Below are positions 6,429 to 16,316 of a stretch of 58,517 nt of DNA, in pieces. Position numbers and translations under genes: made by a program. The DNA lies in the NCBI GenBank assembly GCA_013003395.1, contig JABDJC010000083.1, positions 1 to 58,517 on the forward strand, in the 5' to 3' direction. The notes beneath the pieces are model-generated. The model was not told where the DNA came from and did no database searches. It worked only from the letters and a program-made list of their open reading frames with translations. The DNA comes from Acidimicrobiia bacterium (lineage in GTDB: Bacteria > Actinomycetota > Acidimicrobiia > Spongiisociales > UBA5794). Position 1 is the first letter of the stretch, and the number at the start of each line of letters is the position of its first letter.

Positions 6429-8348
6429 TCAGAGATGACGTCCGTGCCACTCGAGGATCGCCTTGAACCGCTCCCGTCGATGCTTCGGAGAGCCGCCACG
6501 CGACATCTCGTGACCTTCGCCGGGGAACCGGAGGAACTCCGTCGTCACCCCATTGGCCATGAGTACGCCAAACAGCTGTTCCCCCTGCTCGATCGGGGTC
6601 CGGTAATCATTCTCTGAGTGAATGATCAACGTGGGCGTGTTGATCCGCGTCGCTTCAGCCAACGGACTCGCCTTCCACACCGCTTCTGCGTCTTCGATGA
6701 GCGACGTTTCGAGATAGCCGTTGGGGAACCACTGCCCGATGTCTGACGATCCCGTGAACGAGGTCCACGAGTACACGCCCCGCTCGGCAACTGCTGATCG
6801 GAACCGTTCGTCGCGGGCCGTCATCCGTGCGGTCATGAAGCCCCCGTACGAGCCCCCCATGATGCCGATGCGATCTCGATCGAGACGGGGAAAGCGCTCG
6901 AGGGCACCATCGAGAGCTGCGGTGACGTCGATCACGTCGGGTGGATCATCGCTCTGCCAGGTTCCGACAACACCCCGCAGATGATCACGACCTGCACCGC
7001 TCGATCCTCGCGGGTTGCAGGCCACCACTCCGTAACCGGCTTCCGTGTACACCTGGAACTCGTCGAAGAAGCCCCAGCCGTATTGAGCCGCTGGTCCGCC
7101 GTGGATGTTCAGCAACGTGGGCACGGGATCCTCACCGTCTGGCAGATACACCCACACGTCGACGTGCCCCCCATCGAACGGGACGGTGAAGTGCTCGGGT
7201 GTGACGAGCGACACCGAGTCGCTGAAGCCGCTGTTCAAATCGGTGATCGCGGTCGATTGGCCGTCTTCGTACCAGTAGACCTCGCCGGGGTTGTCGGTTG
7301 TCGATGCGGCGTACACCATTGCAGACCCGTCCGGACGACTCGTCACTCCGGAGACTGCCTGCTTGGCATCGATCAAGTCTTCGACGGTCCCATCTGGCAA
7401 AAAGCGCGACACGCGAACCGAGCCACGGTCTTCGACGACGCTCACGAACGAGCCGTCTGCCAGCCACTGCGGTCCCGCCGGCGTGATCTTCGGAGCGATG
7501 GGAAACAGGCTGAGGTCGTATGACGGCGTCACGTCTTCCCACTCACCGGACGATCCTCTTCGTTTGAGTGGAGCGAGGTCGGGCCACCCGTCCACCGCGG
7601 GGACCATGGCCACGTGCAAGGTTCCGTCGGGGCTGTATGACGGAGTGGGACCGAAGCACACCTCCGTCATCGCCGTCGGCTCGCCGCCGCTGACGTCGAT
7701 CTCCCAGACTTGGGCCCCCGGATCGAGGCTCTTCGTCGCGTGTTGCGAGCTCACGAACGCGATCGCGTTGCCATCCGGTCGCCACTCGATCTCGCCGACG
7801 TCATACGTGTCGGCGGTGAGCCGTTCGACGGCCTTGGATTCCACATCGAAGAGAAACAAACCGGAGCGCTTGTCATAGAGGTCGCCGAGGCCGTCGAATC
7901 GGGATGGCAGCTCGGTGATGCGCTTTGGCACCCTCGCCCTCTCGTCGTCGTCGAGATCGGCGTATTCAGACCGGTATTCGACTCCGACGACAGCCACTGA
8001 ACGCCCGTCTGGTGCCCACGAGATCTCGGTGACGCCCAACGCGAGTTCGGTGACCACTTCTGCCTCGCCACCGTCGAAGGGCATCAGAGCCAGCTGCGTG
8101 ACGGCACCGTCCTTGTCGTCCTTTCGGACGAACGCCAGGGTCGACCCGTCGGGAGACCAGCGAGGAGAGCCGTCGAAAGGCCCTGTGGTGAAAACGCGCG
8201 AAATCGTGCCGTCCCAGAGGTGTATCTGACGGACGTAGCGATCGCCTTCGAAGTCCATTCGTGTCACCACAAAGGCGACAGCCGTCCCATTCGGATGAAT
8301 CTGCGGGTCGCTCGGAACGGCGTACGAGTCGAGTTCTTCCGGTTTCAT
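6429..8348 (-). CDS. S9 family serine peptidase (prolyl oligopeptidase/acylaminoacyl-peptidase type)
   Basis: N-terminal beta-propeller-like region followed by a C-terminal alpha/beta hydrolase with a GGSYGG nucleophile elbow. ATG at 8348 preceded by AAAGGAG. Confidence 0.88.
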   Translation of the reverse strand: MKPEELDSYAVPSDPQIHPNGTAVAFVVTRMDFEGDRYVRQIHLWDGTISRVFTTGPFDGSPRWSPDGSTLAFVRKDDKDGAVTQLALMPFDGGEAEVVTELALGVTEISWAPDGRSVAVVGVEYRSEYADLDDDERARVPKRITELPSRFDGLGDLYDKRSGLFLFDVESKAVERLTADTYDVGEIEWRPDGNAIAFVSSQHATKSLDPGAQVWEIDVSGGEPTAMTEVCFGPTPSYSPDGTLHVAMVPAVDGWPDLAPLKRRGSSGEWEDVTPSYDLSLFPIAPKITPAGPQWLADGSFVSVVEDRGSVRVSRFLPDGTVEDLIDAKQAVSGVTSRPDGSAMVYAASTTDNPGEVYWYEDGQSTAITDLNSGFSDSVSLVTPEHFTVPFDGGHVDVWVYLPDGEDPVPTLLNIHGGPAAQYGWGFFDEFQVYTEAGYGVVACNPRGSSGAGRDHLRGVVGTWQSDDPPDVIDVTAALDGALERFPRLDRDRIGIMGGSYGGFMTARMTARDERFRSAVAERGVYSWTSFTGSSDIGQWFPNGYLETSLIEDAEAVWKASPLAEATRINTPTLIIHSENDYRTPIEQGEQLFGVLMANGVTTEFLRFPGEGHEMSRGGSPKHRRERFKAILEWHGRHL

Positions 8349-8440
8349 TGGTGGTCTCCTTTGGCGCATCGGAAACGTAGCAGCACATGGCGGTCAACTA
8401 GCCTCCACACCGCATCCATTCGACCCAGGAGAGACCGACC

Positions 8441-8881
8441 ATGCGCCGCTTCATCGCCTCCGGGTTCGGTCTTGGATTGCTTCCTCGACGGCTGCGCGCC
8501 AGCGACGCGGGGGCTGGCACCGTCGGTGCCTTCGGGGCAGCCGGTCTTTCAGCCGTGTTGTGGGCAGCGCCGGTCTGGTTTGAGATCCTGATTGCGGCGG
8601 TGTTCGTGGCGGGATCGGTTTGGGCAACGGCACCGTTCGCGGACGACCCCGGGTGGGTGACGATCGACGAGCAGGCAGGCGTGCTCATCGCCTTCGTGGG
8701 TCTCAGCGGGGTCCCTTGGGTTGTCGCGTTCGTCGTGTTCCGCCTGGCAGACATCTTCAAACAAACACCGGGCGTAGGCGCCGCAGAGCGGCTCCCTGGC
8801 GGGTGGGGAATCACTGGTGACGACGTCGTCGCAGGCTTCTACGGGCTCGCCGCCGGTTGGGCCGTCACGCTCCTGATGTGA
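8441..8881 (+). CDS. pgpA: Phosphatidylglycerophosphatase A
   Basis: 146 aa with FGLGLLPxxxGTxGA... and DExxG / DIxKP-like PgpA motifs. CAGGAGAG RBS upstream. Confidence 0.85.
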   Translation: MRRFIASGFGLGLLPRRLRASDAGAGTVGAFGAAGLSAVLWAAPVWFEILIAAVFVAGSVWATAPFADDPGWVTIDEQAGVLIAFVGLSGVPWVVAFVVFRLADIFKQTPGVGAAERLPGGWGITGDDVVAGFYGLAAGWAVTLLM

Positions 8882-8899: not shown

Positions 8900-11800
8900 T
8901 CAGCGCACTTCCCGCAGTCTGTCCATCTCGTAGATAGCCCCGATCTGCTCGAAGCACTCTCTGGCACGGTCAACGTGACCCCGTTGCTCGATGGAGCCAT
9001 GCCGCGCGGAACGCGCAAGCCGATCGTTGAGCATGCCTTCGTCCCATATGAGACCCGCCGCTGCAGCCCGCCTGAGCCCTCGACTCCAGACTCGGCGCGC
9101 CGACCGAGTCCGTCCCCTGCCGTCGAGGGCAATGCCCTTGAACAAGGCGAAACGCGGTCGAGCGAACGGCAACACTCTGGCGAACATGCGCAGAACCCTC
9201 AGGCCTCGTCGCGTTTGACCCCGCAGTGCCTTGCGTTCTCGGGGGTCGGAGGTCTCGCGCTCCAACGTCGTGAAGGTCTCGAGCATGCCTGTGAGTCCCG
9301 CCAGGTAGATGAAGATCGGGGTCGAGTCGAATGCAGCCAGCGCGAGATCCGCACTTGCTCGGGCCTGCCGGAGGTCGCCAACACGAAGGCGGTATTGAGC
9401 TTGGGTCCCGTAGATGATCGGAATCGTCAAGGGATCAGCACCTTCGATGAGGTTCTCGGCGTCGAACACGAGCGAAGCTGCGTCCTGTGTTCGTCCCATC
9501 GAGAGCAGTACAGGGATACCCAGCGCAACCGCCCATCCTTCGTGTTCACGGCTGTCCCTCGCACGGGACGACTCGAGGAGCTGGGCATAGTCCTTCCAGG
9601 CCATGTCCATTGCGGTGGTGCAGTGACTCGCGAAGCCGCGGATGGCAAGACCGATCTCAGCCGAGTAGTGATCGCCAAGGCGTGCGCAACGATCGATCCC
9701 GTCGGTGACGAGCGGTTCCCCTTCGCTCCAACGGTTGAACGTGAGCAGGTAGGTGCTTTCGGACAGTGCCACGGCGATCAAATGCCCCGGTCCGAGGTCC
9801 GCGAGGCTGCGCGAGCCGACTCGCTCGGTGACTTCTCGCTCGGCCTCGAAGCGCTCTGCGGCGCGGGCCATCCTGAAGTAACGACGGGCAAGACGTTTCA
9901 GCCGCAGCGTTCCGACGAGATACCCCAGCGAGCTGTAGGCAACGCCCGCCGCAACAGGGTGGCCGGACTTTTCACCCAGATTGATGGCGCGCAGGTTGTA
10001 GAGCGGGAACCCGATGAGGTCGACGGTGAAGTACGAAAGCTCGCCGAGCAACGCGAAGACTCTGGCCGCCCGGGCCAGGCGTGCCGCCTCCTCGTCGGTC
10101 TTCGGGTTCCTCACGACGATCGGGATGAGGATGTGAACAATCTGCACGAGAAGACCCCACAGGACACCGGCAACTCTCCGAACGGTCCCGTTCAATGGCT
10201 CGAATCCGAGATAGTGCAACGCAGCCCTCAACTGCGTGTCAGCCTCGGTCAAGTCGCCAAGCGCCTCATGGGCTTGCCCGAGCTGCGTGTACCAGTCGGC
10301 ACGCTGCCTGTCGGTCACGAACCTGCCGTTGGCAGCGTCAAGGCTCAACGACTTGCGATGGAACGAAATCGCCTCCTTGTTCGAGCCCTTCGAGAATGCC
10401 GTGCCGCCTGCCCTCTCGAGGTATGAGACGGCTCGCGCTGGGTCATCGGCGCGCTCCCAGTGGTGCGCCAGAAGCGCATATCGTTCGTTCAACGGCTCGT
10501 GACCCTCCAGATACTCAGCCACCGCCTTGTGGAGGTTGCGTCGCTGCTCGTACGCCAGGAGCTCGTACGCCGCCTCCTGAATGATCACGTGCTTGAACTC
10601 GTGCGTGGTCTCCGTACCCCGATCGACGAGGCCCATCGTCTCCAAGTCGTCGAGCTCCGCCTCGAGTTCGTCGATCGTCATGGACACCGGGTGCACCGTC
10701 CGGACGATCTCATCATCGAAATTCCTGCCAACGACACTTGCGACCTTCACCGTGAGTTGTTGGCGCGATGACAGTTGATCGAGGCGACTCGTCACGATGT
10801 CCTGCAGCGTGTTGGGGAGATCGAGGCCGGCGAGCGCCGATTCGTTCATCAACAACCTCGCACGCCCATCCCTCACGCTCAGTGCGCCTCGATCCCGCAG
10901 AGCAAAGGCCAACTCTTCTGCATATAGGGGGTGGCCTTCGGACTTGCGGGCTATGACTCGGGCGATTTCGGGAGGGATGTCGTCGACCCCCAGCCGATCT
11001 GCAGCAAGAGCAACAACGTGATTTTCATCAAGCGGCTCGAGGGTCATTTCAGCCGTGGCCGCATCGGCGAGGAGGTCCGTCATGGTTTCTTCGGCGAGAC
11101 CCTCCGGACGTGAGGTCAGCACCAGCAAGAGGGGTTGAACTTCGCGCTTGACTGCCCCCAGCAACGCCCACGACGACGAGTCCGCCCACTGCACGTCCTC
11201 GAGGATCGCCACGATCGGTTGATCGGCGGCCAAGTTCTGGAGTAGGTGTACGACCATCTCGATGGTGGAACTCCTGCGGCTCGTGCCACTCATCGCCCTC
11301 GTGGTGGCATTCTCCGCGAGCCGAGTTCCCAAGACCGCGTTGAGGAGAGGCAGCCACTCCGTCAAGTCCGGACGACTCTCGAATCGACCGGCGATCGCCA
11401 CAGCTCTGGCGTCGGCGTCGAGCTCAGGTCCGAATCCCAAGAGTCCGTCCAACAGGTCACGCCACGCGTGATAGGGAGACGCTGACTCGAGTTCCGACGC
11501 TCCGCCGGTGCCTACCCGGACGCGGAAGGCCGCTGCGTCGTCCACCAACTCGTGCACCAATGCGGACTTCCCGATCCCCGGCTCGCCGTCGATGACGACC
11601 ACGCTCGACGTCCTCCCGTGGGCGAGTGCTCCCAGCCATGCGGTCAACTGCCGAAGCTCGCGCTCGCGGCCTATCACACGACGCTTGATCGAACTCGGTT
11701 GAGCGGCGCCGGCGTGGTCGGTCCAGAGCGCTCGATAGACGTCGACCGGGTGAGCGAATCCGTGTAGATCGACACGCCGCGGCTCGCCCAGCATGATTGC

Positions 11801-12982
11801 GGGACGACTCGCCGCAGCTGAGTTCTGATCGCAGATCACTTCGTTGTGCGACACCTTCATGAGTCGCGCCGCCATGTTCACCACTGGCCCGATCATCGTG
11901 TAGTCACGGCGACCGACTCCGCCGTAGGCGCCGCAGAAGGCCCGTCCGGTCGCCACGCCGATGCCGTGTTCGATGCGAGCCTCGACGAGTTGGCGGTTGA
12001 GACCGAGCGACGCTTCGAGTGCTCGAACCGCATCTCCGACGTGCGCCCTCGGGGGCAGGCCGAAGGCACAGACGAAGGTCGTGCCTTTCTCGTCGACCAG
12101 CACTTTGTTGAGCGTTCCTTCGTACTGATGGATGACGGTCTGGACGATGTGCGCCGCTCGCTCGACTTGAGCACGGTCGTTCTGGTCGACGCAGAAGAGC
12201 TTGGGCAAGTTGACCATTACGGCCGAGATGGAGCGCAGTTCAGCCAGCCAAGAGCCGCCGCCGACCTCCAGCCGGAGCCTGACGGTCTCAGCCACGTGAT
12301 TGCGCAGATCGATGACAATCCGATCGGGCACCGAGACAGCTCGGTGGCCAGGTAGGTGGTCGACGTCGACTCCCGAGACGCGGAGGCTCCCGCCACGGGA
12401 CGTGCCTCGCAGACGAGGACCTGCCGCGTCCCAAGCATCGCTCGACACCACGACCTCGCCAGGTTTGGCTATCTCTTGAGCCTCGCCCATCTGGACAAAG
12501 GGGACACCTCCAGCAACGAAGTGCCACTCGTTTCGGTCACCGCCGACATCCATGAGATACCCGGTACCGGCTCCGACTCCGACGCGAAGGGAAAGGTCTC
12601 GACCCTGCGACTCACCGAATCGTCGGACGGTGCCGACCGCTTCGAGTCCGCAATGCGCTGCCAACCGAACCGCCCCGCCGAGTTCCTCGCCTTCGGCTGC
12701 GGTCCAACCAGCAAGAATCGAGTCGCCGGCAAACCCCAGGATGTCGCCGCCGTGCCTCCGGATGCTGTCGATGACCTCCGCAAAGCAACTGTTGAGCAGG
12801 TCCGTCACCTGCTCGGGGCCGGCACGACTCGTTGCGAGTTCCTCCGTGAGTGCCGTGAAGCCAGAGAGGTCTCCAAACCACGCAACAAGGGGAACTGCGC
12901 CGCTGACCGGAGACGCGCCGGCAAGGCGCGCCAACAGAATGTCTGGCACGAAGTCCGCCAAAGCTTCCGATTCGGTCACCAT
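8900..12982 (-). CDS. Tandem class III nucleotidyl-cyclase domains + P-loop STAND/AAA ATPase + TPR-like repeat protein
   Basis: 1360 aa. CHD1 is about res 30-200 (FGDLSGFT, GFAGDSILA). CHD2 is about res 255-420 (GRAFCGAYGG..., GPVVNMAARL). Walker A GEPGIGKS is at 11564-11587 (res 466-473). The long helical repeat C-terminus has no recognisable HTH. Confidence 0.85.
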   Translation of the reverse strand: MVTESEALADFVPDILLARLAGASPVSGAVPLVAWFGDLSGFTALTEELATSRAGPEQVTDLLNSCFAEVIDSIRRHGGDILGFAGDSILAGWTAAEGEELGGAVRLAAHCGLEAVGTVRRFGESQGRDLSLRVGVGAGTGYLMDVGGDRNEWHFVAGGVPFVQMGEAQEIAKPGEVVVSSDAWDAAGPRLRGTSRGGSLRVSGVDVDHLPGHRAVSVPDRIVIDLRNHVAETVRLRLEVGGGSWLAELRSISAVMVNLPKLFCVDQNDRAQVERAAHIVQTVIHQYEGTLNKVLVDEKGTTFVCAFGLPPRAHVGDAVRALEASLGLNRQLVEARIEHGIGVATGRAFCGAYGGVGRRDYTMIGPVVNMAARLMKVSHNEVICDQNSAAASRPAIMLGEPRRVDLHGFAHPVDVYRALWTDHAGAAQPSSIKRRVIGRERELRQLTAWLGALAHGRTSSVVVIDGEPGIGKSALVHELVDDAAAFRVRVGTGGASELESASPYHAWRDLLDGLLGFGPELDADARAVAIAGRFESRPDLTEWLPLLNAVLGTRLAENATTRAMSGTSRRSSTIEMVVHLLQNLAADQPIVAILEDVQWADSSSWALLGAVKREVQPLLLVLTSRPEGLAEETMTDLLADAATAEMTLEPLDENHVVALAADRLGVDDIPPEIARVIARKSEGHPLYAEELAFALRDRGALSVRDGRARLLMNESALAGLDLPNTLQDIVTSRLDQLSSRQQLTVKVASVVGRNFDDEIVRTVHPVSMTIDELEAELDDLETMGLVDRGTETTHEFKHVIIQEAAYELLAYEQRRNLHKAVAEYLEGHEPLNERYALLAHHWERADDPARAVSYLERAGGTAFSKGSNKEAISFHRKSLSLDAANGRFVTDRQRADWYTQLGQAHEALGDLTEADTQLRAALHYLGFEPLNGTVRRVAGVLWGLLVQIVHILIPIVVRNPKTDEEAARLARAARVFALLGELSYFTVDLIGFPLYNLRAINLGEKSGHPVAAGVAYSSLGYLVGTLRLKRLARRYFRMARAAERFEAEREVTERVGSRSLADLGPGHLIAVALSESTYLLTFNRWSEGEPLVTDGIDRCARLGDHYSAEIGLAIRGFASHCTTAMDMAWKDYAQLLESSRARDSREHEGWAVALGIPVLLSMGRTQDAASLVFDAENLIEGADPLTIPIIYGTQAQYRLRVGDLRQARASADLALAAFDSTPIFIYLAGLTGMLETFTTLERETSDPRERKALRGQTRRGLRVLRMFARVLPFARPRFALFKGIALDGRGRTRSARRVWSRGLRRAAAAGLIWDEGMLNDRLARSARHGSIEQRGHVDRARECFEQIGAIYEMDRLREVR

Positions 12983-13063
12983 CGACAGGCCCCCTACGCC
13001 GAGCCCCCCTCACGGAAATGTATCACTCGCGTGGGATTCCAGTGGGTCTGTAGCCTCTCGCCC

Positions 13064-13972
13064 ATGGCAACCGAACAAGAAGAGATACGCGAGACCATGA
13101 CGGCGCGTCTCGGCTCTTTCACCGATCGTCTCGGCAGCCTGCAGCAGAGCCATCTGAATTCCCTACTCGAGCGGCGCAGGTATCTGGCGTCCGACACCGC
13201 GCTGTTCGACCCGCTCGGCCATCCGGTCGTGGTGATCGGATCGTGGATTTCACGCACCGACGATCCCCTTTCCGATACTCAACTCGACATCGCCGAGTCC
13301 AGCCTCCTCGGCTATCTCCATGTTCGATTGCAGGACGACCACCTGGACGACGGAACCGACCGTCCAGATGCGGTGATGATGCTCGGCGATGCGCTGATTG
13401 CCCGTCACAGCGCATTGCTGGCCAGGCACGTGTCATCAACCGTCTTCTGGAATGCGTTCGAAGAACTCTGGACCAATTACGGAGAAGCGATGCTCTACGA
13501 GCGGTCGCTCATCGAATCAAACGCAGTACGAACCGCCGAGGACTTCGATCGGCTCCTCCACCGATCTCGCCCCCTGTCCATTCCCGGCCTTGCGGCACTC
13601 GCGGTCGAGGACCGACTGGCGGAGGCCCCACATGTCATGGACCTCGTGACGGGAATCATCCGGTCCGGCCAACTTGTCACCGACCTGATGGACGCACCTG
13701 CAGACCTGGAGTCCGGCCGGCACACGTGGATCGTGGAGCGCCTCGATGGACGGCAAGGAGCATCAGCGTTGAAACGTGCGATGGTCCGCGAGTTCGACGG
13801 GATCCTTGCTGAAGCGGCGGCCGCACTCGATTCCGCAGCGAACGCCGCCGACGAGCTCGCCGCATCTAGGGCAACTCACTGGATTGATCAACGGCGTGAA
13901 CGCCTCGCCGATCTGCAGGCAACGTTTTTCGAGGGCCTCTTTTCCCCGCTACTCAGCCGACATGAGGAGTAG
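13064..13972 (+). CDS. Class I isoprenoid-synthase-fold protein, phytoene/squalene-synthase-like
   Basis: 302 aa. LLGYLHVRLQDDHLDDG (res 81-97) and QLVTDLMDAPADLESGRHTW (res 203-222) resemble the two Asp-rich motifs of SQS/PSY enzymes. Start taken at the first ATG outside the antisense overlap with the STAND gene. Confidence 0.6.
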   Translation: MATEQEEIRETMTARLGSFTDRLGSLQQSHLNSLLERRRYLASDTALFDPLGHPVVVIGSWISRTDDPLSDTQLDIAESSLLGYLHVRLQDDHLDDGTDRPDAVMMLGDALIARHSALLARHVSSTVFWNAFEELWTNYGEAMLYERSLIESNAVRTAEDFDRLLHRSRPLSIPGLAALAVEDRLAEAPHVMDLVTGIIRSGQLVTDLMDAPADLESGRHTWIVERLDGRQGASALKRAMVREFDGILAEAAAALDSAANAADELAASRATHWIDQRRERLADLQATFFEGLFSPLLSRHEE

Positions 13973-14012
13973 CGTTGTGTAAGCGTTCTCCCGACGCCAG
14001 AAGGGGCAGACA

Positions 14013-14237
14013 ATGAACGACGAACCAGCCATCCCCAATGAACTCATTGGACGAGCGATCACCGACCACGAATTCCGCGAGCGCTTCCTCGCCGACCCTC
14101 AGAAGACCCTGGACGATGAGGGCTACTCGCTGAAACTCAGTTCCAGCCAGCTCGAAGCGGTACAGGACTTGGATGACGGGGTCATCGACTTTGCCATCCA
14201 CGGAATCAGCAAGGGACGCCCTGAAACCATGGCGTGA
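14013..14237 (+). CDS. Small protein with nitrile-hydratase-leader-like (NHLP clan / Franean1_4349-like) N-terminus; candidate RiPP precursor or small partner protein
   Basis: 74 aa. ELIGRAITDHEFRERFLADPQKTLDDEGY resembles NHLP-type leaders. GAAGGGG lies 6 nt upstream of the ATG, and the ORF is in operon position between two enzymes. Confidence 0.55.
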   Translation: MNDEPAIPNELIGRAITDHEFRERFLADPQKTLDDEGYSLKLSSSQLEAVQDLDDGVIDFAIHGISKGRPETMA

Positions 14238-14247
14238 CCGCGCCGCG

Positions 14248-15027
14248 GTGACCACGTCGGGCGAACCACGGCGCATAGCCGAGTACTACGACCGATGGTC
14301 TCCGCTGTTTCTCCAGTCTTTCGGGTCGGTGTTTCAAGCGGGTCTTGTCGACCGGATGAGTCCGGCCGACTCGGTCGTCGAGATGACGAGCGATGTTCCG
14401 TTCGCAGCGGGAGACCTGATTCTCGACGCGGGGTGCGGGATCGGCGGACCGGCGATCGCGCTCGCGCAGGCGCATGCGGGAATCGAGATAGAAGCCATCA
14501 CGATCTCTCCCGTGCAGGCGACGATGGCCCGCGACCTCATCGCGGACGCTCACCTGGAGAATCGGGTACGGGTCGCCGTCGGCGACTATCACGCCCTCCC
14601 CTACGCAGACGCTGCGTTCGATCACGTGATCTTGTTTGAAGCGATCGGATACAGCCACGATCCGCAGCAGTTGCTCTCAGAGTTGCACCGGGTACTCAAA
14701 CCGAACGGCACGGTCTTCGTGAAGGACGTCTTTCGTCGCTCGGCTCCACTCACCGCCGATGAGCTTGCGGCGATGCAGGAATTCGATGAGTTGTGGGCAT
14801 GCGTCCGCTCCCCGAAGCTCTCCGAGATCGAGGCCACCGCATTGGCTGTCGGGTTCGTCGATGTGGTGGCCGCTCCGGTGGAGTTCTCAACTGAACGATT
14901 GCTCGGCGCGATGTTCAGGTTCTCGAGCAAAGGCATCGAATACTCGCAACTCGGCGAACAGTTCTATCGGCCAGATCTCAGGCCTCCGGTGGTCTTCGGT
15001 CGAGTCGTCGGCCGCAGACCCGCCTGA
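14248..15027 (+). CDS. Class I SAM-dependent methyltransferase (tocopherol/sterol/GPP-MT-like N-terminus)
   Basis: IAEYYDRWSPLF... followed by ILDAGCGIGGPA (motif I) and LKPNGTVFV. GTG at 14248 chosen to avoid a 65-nt overlap with the small ORF; the ORF-track start at 14173 is also possible. Confidence 0.8.
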   Translation: MTTSGEPRRIAEYYDRWSPLFLQSFGSVFQAGLVDRMSPADSVVEMTSDVPFAAGDLILDAGCGIGGPAIALAQAHAGIEIEAITISPVQATMARDLIADAHLENRVRVAVGDYHALPYADAAFDHVILFEAIGYSHDPQQLLSELHRVLKPNGTVFVKDVFRRSAPLTADELAAMQEFDELWACVRSPKLSEIEATALAVGFVDVVAAPVEFSTERLLGAMFRFSSKGIEYSQLGEQFYRPDLRPPVVFGRVVGRRPA

Positions 15028-15085: not shown

Positions 15086-15529
15086 ATGGAATCGTGGAAA
15101 GCGAAGCTCATCATCGTCGGAGTCGACGGGTCAGACGCGAGCGTCGATGCTGCCTCGGTTGCCGCCAGCCTGGCGAGAAGCGCAGGAGCCAGGCTCCACA
15201 TCGTGACCGTCGTCAAACCGCCAGAAGGATGGTGGGGAATCATCGAGTCCCCACCGACCGCTTCGGCCCTGGGCAACGCACTCGAGGAAGCGCAGCGCAA
15301 AGTGCTGGACCTGACAACCTCTCGCGTCGATCTCGACGGCATCGAATACGAGACGGTGGAGGAGATCGGCGATCCCGGCCGAGCTCTGGCGGGCTACTGC
15401 GAACAGCACGAAGCCGACCTCCTCGTGATTGGACGACACGGAGCCGGGTTGTTCGACCGACTCACAATCGGCTCCGTCACTCATCGACTACTGCATGACG
15501 CACCGTGTCCCGTGATGGTCGTGCCTTGA
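15086..15529 (+). CDS. Universal stress protein (UspA family)
   Basis: 147 aa. IIVGVDGSDAS... and a C-terminal GRHGAGLFDRLTIGSVTHRLLHDAPCPVMVV Usp ATP-binding pattern. GAGAGGAGG RBS. Confidence 0.88.
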   Translation: MESWKAKLIIVGVDGSDASVDAASVAASLARSAGARLHIVTVVKPPEGWWGIIESPPTASALGNALEEAQRKVLDLTTSRVDLDGIEYETVEEIGDPGRALAGYCEQHEADLLVIGRHGAGLFDRLTIGSVTHRLLHDAPCPVMVVP

Positions 15530-15892: not shown

Positions 15893-15956
15893 ACCGAAGG
15901 GTGAGTTTTTCACGGTGGAACCATGGGACGTGCCGTTTCCTGAGCGCAACATTCCG

Positions 15957-16316
15957 ATGTGGCGCCTCATCGCACGAGGCGCTGTTCGCCGCTGTGCTCG
16001 TTGTGGCCAAGGCCGTCTCTTCACGCGATGGTTCACGATGCGCCCTGACTGCCCGAGATGCGGTCTCCACTTCGAGCGAGAGCAGGGTTACTGGCTAGGC
16101 GCGATGACCCTCAACTTCGCCGTAACCGAGGCTATGTTCGTTGTGGTGCTCGTCGCAACGATGGCGATCACCTGGCCGGATGTGCCGTGGGGAACGCTGC
16201 TCATTGCGGTGCTCGCGACAAACGTCATCGTCCCGTTGGTGTTCTATCCGATATCGAAGACGATTTGGGTCGGACTCGAGCGCGGAGTGCGCAGTCGACT
16301 CGATTTCGCCGGTTGA
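15957..16316 (+). CDS. DUF983-like zinc-ribbon membrane protein
   Basis: CARCGQG...CPRCG Cys4 ribbon followed by two TM helices. Start at the internal ATG; 15915 is also possible. Confidence 0.65.
   Translation: MWRLIARGAVRRCARCGQGRLFTRWFTMRPDCPRCGLHFEREQGYWLGAMTLNFAVTEAMFVVVLVATMAITWPDVPWGTLLIAVLATNVIVPLVFYPISKTIWVGLERGVRSRLDFAG

Follow-up and report, generated by a model that had tools for sequence, protein, structure and literature searches.

A PalQ/PalX-like gene module in an Acidimicrobiia bacterium: a candidate peptide-lipidation system beside a cyclase-STAND gene

What does an enzyme with the Asp-rich motifs of an isoprenoid synthase do when it is encoded next to a small leader-like protein and a methyltransferase? 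The question is raised by a compact module of three same-strand genes in contig JABDJC010000083.1 of an Acidimicrobiia bacterium (GenBank assembly GCA_013003395.1), analysed here over its stretch of 58,517 nucleotides (the window). The module is divergent from a gene for a large protein with nucleotidyl-cyclase and STAND ATPase domains, referred to below as the cyclase-STAND gene. The initial annotation of the window offered two readings, a methylated-isoprenoid pathway, and a system of the kind that makes RiPPs (peptides produced by the ribosome and modified after translation), with an isoprenoid-fold enzyme and a methyltransferase working on a peptide. Our analysis favours the second over the first. 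We assign a probability of about 0.55 to a RiPP-type module resembling PalQ/PalX of Paenibacillus alvei, in which the first enzyme would lipidate the C-terminal tail of the small protein, the methyltransferase would tailor the product, and the cyclase-STAND protein would be a sensor or regulator. The features concerned are the following.

13064..13972, + strand: gene 1, 302 amino acids, ATG start at 13064; enzyme with a predicted trans-isoprenyl diphosphate synthase (trans-IDS) fold, putative peptide prenyltransferase
14013..14237, + strand: gene 2, 74 amino acids, ATG start at 14013; Os1348-family small protein of the nitrile hydratase leader peptide (NHLP) clan, putative precursor/substrate
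14248..15027, + strand: gene 3, 259 amino acids, GTG start at 14248; class I S-adenosylmethionine (SAM)-dependent methyltransferase, MitM/RebM type, putative tailoring enzyme
12983..13063, no strand: divergent intergenic region of 81 nt, common to gene 1 and the cyclase-STAND gene, presumed promoter region
8900..12982, - strand: cyclase-STAND gene, 1360 amino acids, putative sensor/regulator of the three-gene module

The arrangement given by the initial annotation, with gaps of 40 nt between genes 1 and 2 and 10 nt between genes 2 and 3, and with the 81-nt upstream region shared with the divergent gene, holds in full; the motifs that it had singled out are found at the residues given for them in gene 1, LLGYLHVRLQDDHLDDG (81-97) and QLVTDLMDAPADLESGRHTW (203-222), and both IAEYYDRWSPLFLQSFG and DAGCGIGGP are present in gene 3. 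A Shine-Dalgarno-like site, GAAGGGG, precedes the ATG of gene 2. An alternative in-frame ATG of gene 3, at 14173, would overlap gene 2; the short form (GTG 14248) is favoured, since in the orthologues the start lies 4-10 codons ahead of the conserved SGEPRR. The same genes stand in full synteny on two orthologous contigs from metagenomes (L001 and L002), with gene 1 identity of 70% and 59%, respectively. Measured against these contigs, gene 1 has a dN/dS of 0.19-0.28, gene 2 one of 0.07-0.09 and gene 3 one of 0.12-0.16, and homologues of each gene are found in dozens of other genomes. By these comparisons, the three open reading frames (ORFs) are real genes under purifying selection, and chance ORFs are excluded.

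The gene 1 family and its predicted fold

Single-sequence searches of Pfam, NCBIfam and the PDB with gene 1 (phmmer) give no match, and a word-indexed protein search retrieves only the two orthologues, to which a 66-sequence profile adds one protein. An exhaustive profile search collects a family of 305 representative proteins (E <= 1e-3; 66 of them at <= 1e-30), mostly of about 300 amino acids. In the alignment of 66 sequences, P54, G83, D91, D95 and Q203 are invariant, W61, Y84, R88, E146, R167, P170, P174, D207 and D214 are nearly so, and the consensus motifs read GYLxVRxQDDxxDEG and QLxxDLxDAxxDLxxGNxTWV. The first Asp-rich motif (FARM) of gene 1 itself is Q90-D91-D92-H-L-D95, and the region of the conserved Gln and the second Asp-rich motif (SARM) is Q203-L-V-T206-D207-L-M-D210-A-P-A-D214. 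The two Asp-rich motifs recognised at annotation are thus genuine and hold the most conserved positions of the family.

The AlphaFold2 (AF2) model of gene 1, built on the 66-sequence alignment, is all-helical, with a pLDDT of 96.6 and a pTM of 0.93; a three-sequence alignment gave a pLDDT of 47 only. The top 50 Foldseek matches of this model in the PDB are almost all trans-IDS, plus the Trp farnesyltransferase Ord1, at TM scores of 0.52-0.67, and the best one is 3aqb, the large subunit of the M. luteus heterodimeric hexaprenyl diphosphate synthase (E 2.3e-4). The family profile matches 4lob, a polyprenyl synthetase, with an E of 3e-4 and with both FARM and SARM in register; against CrtM it reaches only E 1.9. 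After FARM, where 4lob has its RRG segment (GLRRGRPT), the family has an 11-residue gap, and gene 1, which is missing this segment, does not match Pfam polyprenyl_synt (PF00348). It has no match to SQS_PSY (PF00494) at E <= 1 either; one of the 66 family members matches that model at 0.022, and three match Terpene_syn_C_2 weakly, at 0.016.

Judged by the model, gene 1 has a class I isoprenoid-synthase fold of the trans-IDS kind rather than that of squalene/phytoene synthase. The all-helical class I fold expected at annotation is therefore borne out by AF2 and Foldseek, and the original label, phytoene/squalene-synthase-like, is correct for the superfamily only. Remote members tie the family to isoprenoid chemistry by their fusions, to a FAD/geranylgeranyl-reductase-like domain in P0130 and P0148, and to a squalene-hopene-cyclase-like domain in P0140 (1081 amino acids). 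In another remote member, P0006, an N-terminal stretch matches the AEP-TOTE primase model (33.8 bits), which is unexplained.

Relation to PalQ/PalX and the acceptor residue

Peptide prenyltransferases resembling trans-IDS have been described, namely ComQ, the P domain of ChrPC, and PalQ (PMC13290415). PalQ of P. alvei (Miyata, Ito & Fujinami 2023) is a protein of 312 amino acids without family assignment. Its substrate is PalX, an NHLP-type precursor whose gene lies next to its own and whose C-terminal Trp it prenylates; a histidine kinase gene adjoins the pair (PMC10853753). We located the P. alvei locus (L048) with PalQ by a PalX search, and compared PalQ with the family of gene 1 and PalX with that of gene 2. 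Between PalQ and the profile of the gene 1 family, hhalign gives 95.3% and E 2e-8 over 167 columns, with LPxW, QDDxxD, FW and the Q..D..D...DL..G region in common; the pairwise BLASTP comparison of gene 1 with PalQ gives E 5e-6 at 20% identity. PalQ alone finds no match among PDB sequences, so that its relation to the gene 1 family is closer than its relation to any solved protein. Likewise, the gene 2 family profile matches the PalX leader (hhalign 93%, E 3.5e-7), and the order of genes, enzyme and then peptide, is the same in the module and the Pal locus. By homology, PalQ is the closest characterised relative of gene 1. The P. alvei contig further has a class I methyltransferase gene (L048:530-1234, minus strand), which lies about 2.8 kb upstream of palQ and is read from the other strand.

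At the first Asp-rich motif of PalQ (D89/D93), gene 1 has D91 and D95, aligned with PalQ QDDVMD. The Gln of PalQ (Q197) is kept as Q203, but the position of its first SARM Asp (D200) is taken by T206, which is also present in both orthologues; D207 and D210 align with PalQ D201 and D204. An NHLP-type precursor gene is adjacent as in P. alvei, in the form of the NF038399 ORF 40 nt downstream of gene 1. Trp is found nowhere in the 74-residue gene 2 protein, and the 20% identity places gene 1 outside the PalQ sequence cluster, which holds at about 32% identity or more in the network of PMC13290415. Three tested features, namely the Trp acceptor, the first SARM Asp and the degree of identity, thus set gene 1 outside the PalQ family proper, much as it resembles PalQ at the level tested.

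Gene 2 passes the Os1348-family model of the NHLP clan (NF038399) with 49.7 bits against a cut-off of 40, as do the tested small ORFs of other loci (48-71 bits). It stays under the cut-offs of the NHLP leader model TIGR03793 (23.6 vs 50.9) and of Frankia_peptide PF14407 (44.9 vs 48), so that the first description of it as an NHLP-like small protein stands for the clan and not for these two models. The Os1348 prototype, a protein of 85 amino acids, is linked to antibiotic activity and has other neighbour enzymes (PMC7726476); the LigA-like three-helix group of ECOD includes Frankia_peptide, Nif11, ComX and nitrile hydratase alpha (PMC12353581). Across loci, the small proteins have 70-85 amino acids, with a conserved N-terminal helical region ELIGRAV.D..FR.RLL.DP and clade-specific C-terminal tails of about 10 residues, such as KWG/KWA, TMA (window), RKAAG/S, KRAAT, DPSGY, GGVGM (Sorangium) and others. 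The window protein is built in the same way, from a conserved N-terminal helical leader-like domain and a clade-specific tail (...HGISKGRPETMA), and it contains zero Trp and zero Cys. Such a combination of constant leader and variable tail, as it appears in these alignments, is the usual pattern of RiPP precursors.

Recognition of the indole ring has been attributed to the conserved Gln and the first SARM Asp (PMC13290415). The enzyme has the PalQ-like Q-x-x-D-D in all 13 loci with a Trp-containing peptide, and in two of the 33 loci with a Trp-less one; the Fisher p is 1e-9 at the level of loci, which are not independent, and 0.02 at the level of clades. The peptides of sister clades end in ...KWG/KWA, and the window clade has Q-L-V-T-D, with T206 in place of PalQ D200. 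As far as can be told from sequence, the window system has lost both Trp and the first SARM Asp, has kept the metal-binding DDxxD, and stays under purifying selection. With no Trp and with Thr at this position, its acceptor would have to differ from that of every characterised trans-IDS-like peptide prenyltransferase. A metagenome scan with the three close orthologues returned a single fragment, 39% identical, and the Trp-less ...TMA clade of the window is thus known from three contigs only.

The module and its neighbours across genomes

We scanned one genome per species, using a 15-sequence alignment as query, and found 45 further loci, which make 48 with the window and its two orthologues. 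The hosts are Acidimicrobiia, other Actinomycetota, Acidobacteriota, 16 Sorangium genomes and other Myxococcota-like contigs. In 46 of the 48 loci, among them both close orthologues, the next gene after that of the enzyme is an NHLP-clan small ORF; its loss or disruption in close relatives, which the initial annotation had named as a refutation, is not seen. The peptide gene is followed by a methyltransferase gene in 20 of the 48 loci, all in Actinomycetota or Acidobacteriota, where the gene 1 homologue is 30-42% identical to that of the window. Co-conservation of the trio was made a test of the proposal by the initial annotation, and 17 loci in addition to the two close orthologues have all three genes. 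Conservation of the trio thus reaches far past close relatives, yet the methyltransferase is accessory.

Several loci depart from the simple layout. L017 (8901-9605) and L018 (8591-9430) each have, between the gene of the enzyme and that of the methyltransferase, a tandem pair of NHLP-clan peptide genes that differ in their C-terminal tails. In L045, the peptide ORF is split over two frames and the cyclase-STAND gene is in pieces; a frameshift or a fault of assembly could account for this. The methyltransferase is replaced by a conserved protein of about 665 amino acids in the Sorangium loci (L019-L040, e.g. L026:9342-11336) and in L020, from a metagenome-assembled genome (MAG) of Egibacteraceae. 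This protein has no match in Pfam, NCBIfam or PDB sequences; its C-terminus has a '...LxxxQxxDGSWP' repeat and a weak likeness to the squalene-hopene-cyclase-like domain of P0140 (E 0.008), and judging by this likeness it may be a cyclase acting on a lipid. The module is also carried by seven contigs of 65-72% GC that are labelled as Rickettsiales, Enterobacterales or Klebsiella pneumoniae MAGs (L010, L015, L022, L032, L037, L043, L046); these labels are probably binning errors.

Gene 3 matches Methyltransf_11 with 73.8 bits and Methyltransf_25 with 67.1 bits and, on the strength of these models and of the DAGCGIGGP SAM loop, belongs to the class I SAM methyltransferases. Among solved structures it is nearest to MitM (4e-21) and to 3bus (9e-19), which we take to be RebM. 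Weaker PDB matches are 5gm1 (presumably TleD, 1.5e-12), BezA (2e-11) and sterol 24-C-methyltransferase (2.5e-9), and weaker again are the C6-methyltransferase of farnesyl diphosphate (FPP; 2.8e-6) and the 2-C-methyltransferase of geranyl diphosphate (GPP; 6e-6). The UbiE/MenG models give sub-threshold scores of 36-41 bits (41 vs a cut-off of 158). The earlier designation of gene 3 as tocopherol/sterol-type was too specific, with MitM and RebM closest and the sterol and GPP methyltransferases much weaker.

The product of the divergent gene contains two class III nucleotidyl-cyclase domains (Guanylate_cyc, in two stretches), an AAA_16 STAND ATPase (78.6 bits) and TPR repeats; it matches TIGR03903, the TOMM kinase/cyclase fusion model, with 192.1 bits over residues 285-877 only, against a cut-off of 705.75. 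Sixteen loci of Actinomycetota and Acidobacteriota have a full-length orthologue placed divergently to the enzyme gene. The divergent arrangement, with starts 82-243 nt apart, is seen in 15 loci other than the window, plus L045 with its disrupted STAND gene. A class III cyclase and/or an AAA_16-TPR STAND protein is found at a distance of no more than 5 kb in 24 further loci, giving a total of 40 of the 48 in about five arrangements; the Sorangium version is a membrane-anchored cyclase (Guanylate_cyc, 101 bits). A reading of the locus as anti-phage defence was rejected, as PADLOC shows generic cyclase and methyltransferase similarity only. Just past the cyclase-STAND gene, about 4.7 kb upstream of the enzyme gene, seven loci (L003, L004, L006, L007, L008, L039, L045) have a SnoaL_3-like gene of about 133 codons, in the place where the window has a PgpA-like gene.

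The GC content is even across the region, at about 62%. A scan of the 81-nt intergenic region for the sigma-70 consensus and a scan of the region against Rfam gave no match, and promoter and terminator scans were uninformative. Genes for tRNA-Glu and tRNA-Gln lie at 1148-1323. The flanking genes listed below are syntenic in both orthologous contigs and apparently unrelated to the module.

6429-8369: S9 peptidase
8441-8881: PgpA-like gene
15086-15529: universal stress protein
15915-16316: DUF983
up to 19092: phosphoenolpyruvate carboxylase

Competing readings and known systems

The PalQ/PalX-like reading starts from the fold, the homology to both PalQ and PalX, the conservation of motifs, the gene linkage and the purifying selection, and from these we infer a possible sequence of events. 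The gene 1 protein, probably dimeric, would bind a prenyl diphosphate via Mg2+ held by the invariant DDxxD (D91/D95). The NHLP-clan protein of 74 residues would dock by its conserved N-terminal helical domain, with its short C-terminal tail entering the active site, and gene 1 would move the isoprenoid onto a residue of this tail. The MitM/RebM-type methyltransferase would then methylate either the peptide or the isoprenoid. The cyclase-STAND-TPR protein would be the sensor or regulator, in the role that the histidine kinases ComP and PalP have in ComQXPA and PalQXP, and its output would be a cyclic nucleotide.

A number of observations speak against this proposal. All characterised trans-IDS-like peptide prenyltransferases need Trp (PMC13290415), and the window peptide has none. 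The identity to PalQ is only about 20%, and the hhalign match spans the central 167 columns only; the correlation of the SARM motif with Trp is confounded by phylogeny, with a clade-level p of only 0.02. No single nucleophilic residue is common to all types of tail, and the three orthologues show strong conservation along the whole 74-residue protein up to the end of its tail, which also fits a folded partner protein. The methyltransferase is missing from 28 of the 48 loci, hence accessory, and the locus has no protease or exporter gene, which leaves a secreted product unsupported.

A broader version of the same reading is offered tentatively, as a conjecture that we find rather doubtful in its entirety. 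The gene 1 family would be a widespread, uncharacterised trans-IDS-like peptide-modifying branch in Acidimicrobiia, Acidobacteriota and Myxococcota, most members of which, that of the window included, would lipidate a non-Trp side chain or the C-terminus of an NHLP-clan protein of 70-75 amino acids. The product would be the signal or ligand of the cytoplasmic cyclase-STAND sensor, in a lipopeptide circuit similar to ComQXPA with a cyclic-nucleotide output.

Among the alternatives, all of them unlikely in our view, the one that survives best takes gene 2 for a regulatory subunit or a folded partner, for instance one that serves the cyclase-STAND protein as ligand or adaptor. Gene 1 would then be a non-prenylating protein, binding a lipid diphosphate or performing some other chemistry on the tail, and its likeness to PalQ would be ancestral only. 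Os1348 indeed crystallises as a dimeric folded protein and associates with GNAT, HEXXH and SagB partners (PMC7726476). Full-length conservation of gene 2 (dN/dS 0.07-0.09), the lack of Trp, T206 at the first SARM Asp, and a cyclase and/or STAND protein near 40 of the 48 loci all agree with such a role. It accounts less well for the invariance of DDxxD and Gln in 66 divergent sequences, which points to retained diphosphate chemistry, for the geranylgeranyl-reductase-like and squalene-hopene-cyclase-like fusions, which point to an isoprenoid substrate, and for the variable tail on a constant leader, typical of RiPP precursors.

Less likely again is a small-molecule route, the methylated-isoprenoid pathway of the initial annotation. 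Here gene 1 would be a divergent prenyltransferase or terpene synthase that takes a free prenyl diphosphate as its substrate, gene 3 would methylate the diphosphate or the product, in the manner of the GPP methyltransferase that works with 2-methylisoborneol synthase, and gene 2 would be a regulator or chaperone rather than a substrate. The isoprenoid-synthase fold with its DDxxD is compatible with this, as are the prenyl C-methyltransferases among the solved relatives of gene 3 (5gm1, BezA, C6-FPP, GPP 2-C) and the weak Terpene_syn_C_2 matches in three of 66 family members (0.016); the 2-methylisoborneol operon also holds a cyclic-nucleotide-binding protein, a parallel to the cyclase link here. 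However, gene 1 has its invariant partner in the small protein (46 of 48 loci) and not in the methyltransferase (20 of 48), and the enzyme and the small protein are both homologous to PalQ and PalX. The structural neighbours of gene 1 are trans-IDS and not terpene cyclases, its second motif reads Q..D..D rather than the NSE/DTE triad, and the best matches of gene 3 are the heteroatom methyltransferases MitM and RebM.

Finally, a heteromeric chain-elongating prenyl diphosphate synthase with a quinone-type methyltransferase (the hepS-menH-hepT pattern, genes of which are combined in the Bacillus gerC operon), with gene 1 as catalytic subunit, gene 2 as small accessory subunit and gene 3 as a UbiE/MenG-like enzyme, would fit the top Foldseek match to 3aqb, itself the large subunit of a heterodimeric synthase, and the sub-threshold UbiE/MenG scores of 36-41 bits, but is very improbable, given that gene 1 has no Pfam polyprenyl_synt match, that the RRG segment after FARM is missing from its family and likewise from PalQ, that gene 2 belongs to the NHLP clan above a curated cut-off, unlike a HepS/HexA-type subunit, and that the UbiE/MenG scores are far under their cut-offs (41 vs 158).

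Of the known systems, PalQ/PalX/PalP is the nearest to the PalQ/PalX-like module proposed here. It has the same succession of an enzyme of about 300 amino acids with a trans-IDS fold and no Pfam match, followed on the same strand by a small NHLP-clan precursor, with a sensor or signalling gene next to the pair, and the two enzymes share the QDDxxD FARM, the Gln before SARM, LPxW, FW and the loss of the RRG segment. The differences are that PalQ is strictly specific for a terminal Trp, absent from the window peptide; that gene 1 has T206 at the first SARM Asp; that the window precursor is in the Os1348 family and not in the NHLP leader family; that a methyltransferase is added here, and a cyclase-STAND partner stands where the Pal locus has a histidine kinase; and that the Pal hosts are Firmicutes, whereas modules of the window type come from Actinomycetota, Acidobacteriota and Myxococcota.

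The ComQ/ComX/ComP/ComA quorum-sensing system of Bacillus is similar in that a polyprenyl-synthase-like enzyme prenylates a small ribosomal peptide and a signal-transduction gene is coupled to the pair. In fold, the leader of ComX belongs with Frankia_peptide and NHLP to the LigA-like three-helix class (PMC12353581). ComQ, set beside gene 1 by description only, modifies an internal Trp, has no true SARM, and works with a membrane histidine kinase as receptor. The prenyltransferase-cyclase fusions ChrPC and NctPC (Hubrich et al. 2024, as cited in PMC13290415) combine peptide prenylation with subsequent processing of the isoprenoid. The squalene-hopene-cyclase-like fusion in a remote member of the gene 1 family and the 665-residue protein encoded after the peptide gene in Sorangium loci are parallels to them; going by their description in that source, ChrPC and NctPC act on Trp, and the window has a methyltransferase and no cyclase-like tailoring gene.

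The Os1348 cluster of Pseudomonas sp. Os17 has a small protein of the same NCBIfam family, NF038399, accompanied by a GNAT, a HEXXH protein and a SagB-type dehydrogenase, and by no isoprenoid-fold enzyme (PMC7726476). In the TOMM kinase/cyclase fusions (TIGR03903), a large cyclase-containing protein of about 1350 amino acids is found beside an NHLP-clan precursor; the window protein is far under the cut-off of that model, and a kinase domain is absent from it, as is a cyclodehydratase from the locus. Class III cyclases and STAND ATPases recur beside the module in five apparently independent arrangements, which suggests a connection between a modified small protein and cyclic-nucleotide signalling, and this linkage may also explain the long-noted cyclase fusion proteins beside NHLP-type precursors.

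The remark made at annotation, that this exact trio is known from no characterised system, still holds; for the pair of enzyme and precursor, PalQ/PalX and ComQ/ComX are characterised precedents. ComQ, PalQ and ChrPC, the trans-IDS-like peptide prenyltransferases characterised so far, are all specific for Trp, and their hosts are Firmicutes or belong to a few other lineages (PMC13290415). The gene 1 family extends the pairing of enzyme and NHLP precursor to at least Actinomycetota, Acidobacteriota and Myxococcota. As most precursors of this family have no Trp, the acceptor scope or the chemistry of its enzymes would be wider than known, which bears on tools for enzymatic peptide lipidation. 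What was known, then, is the pair represented by PalQ/PalX; what appears to be new is a distant branch of such enzymes, present in neither Pfam nor NCBIfam, whose precursors are mostly free of Trp.

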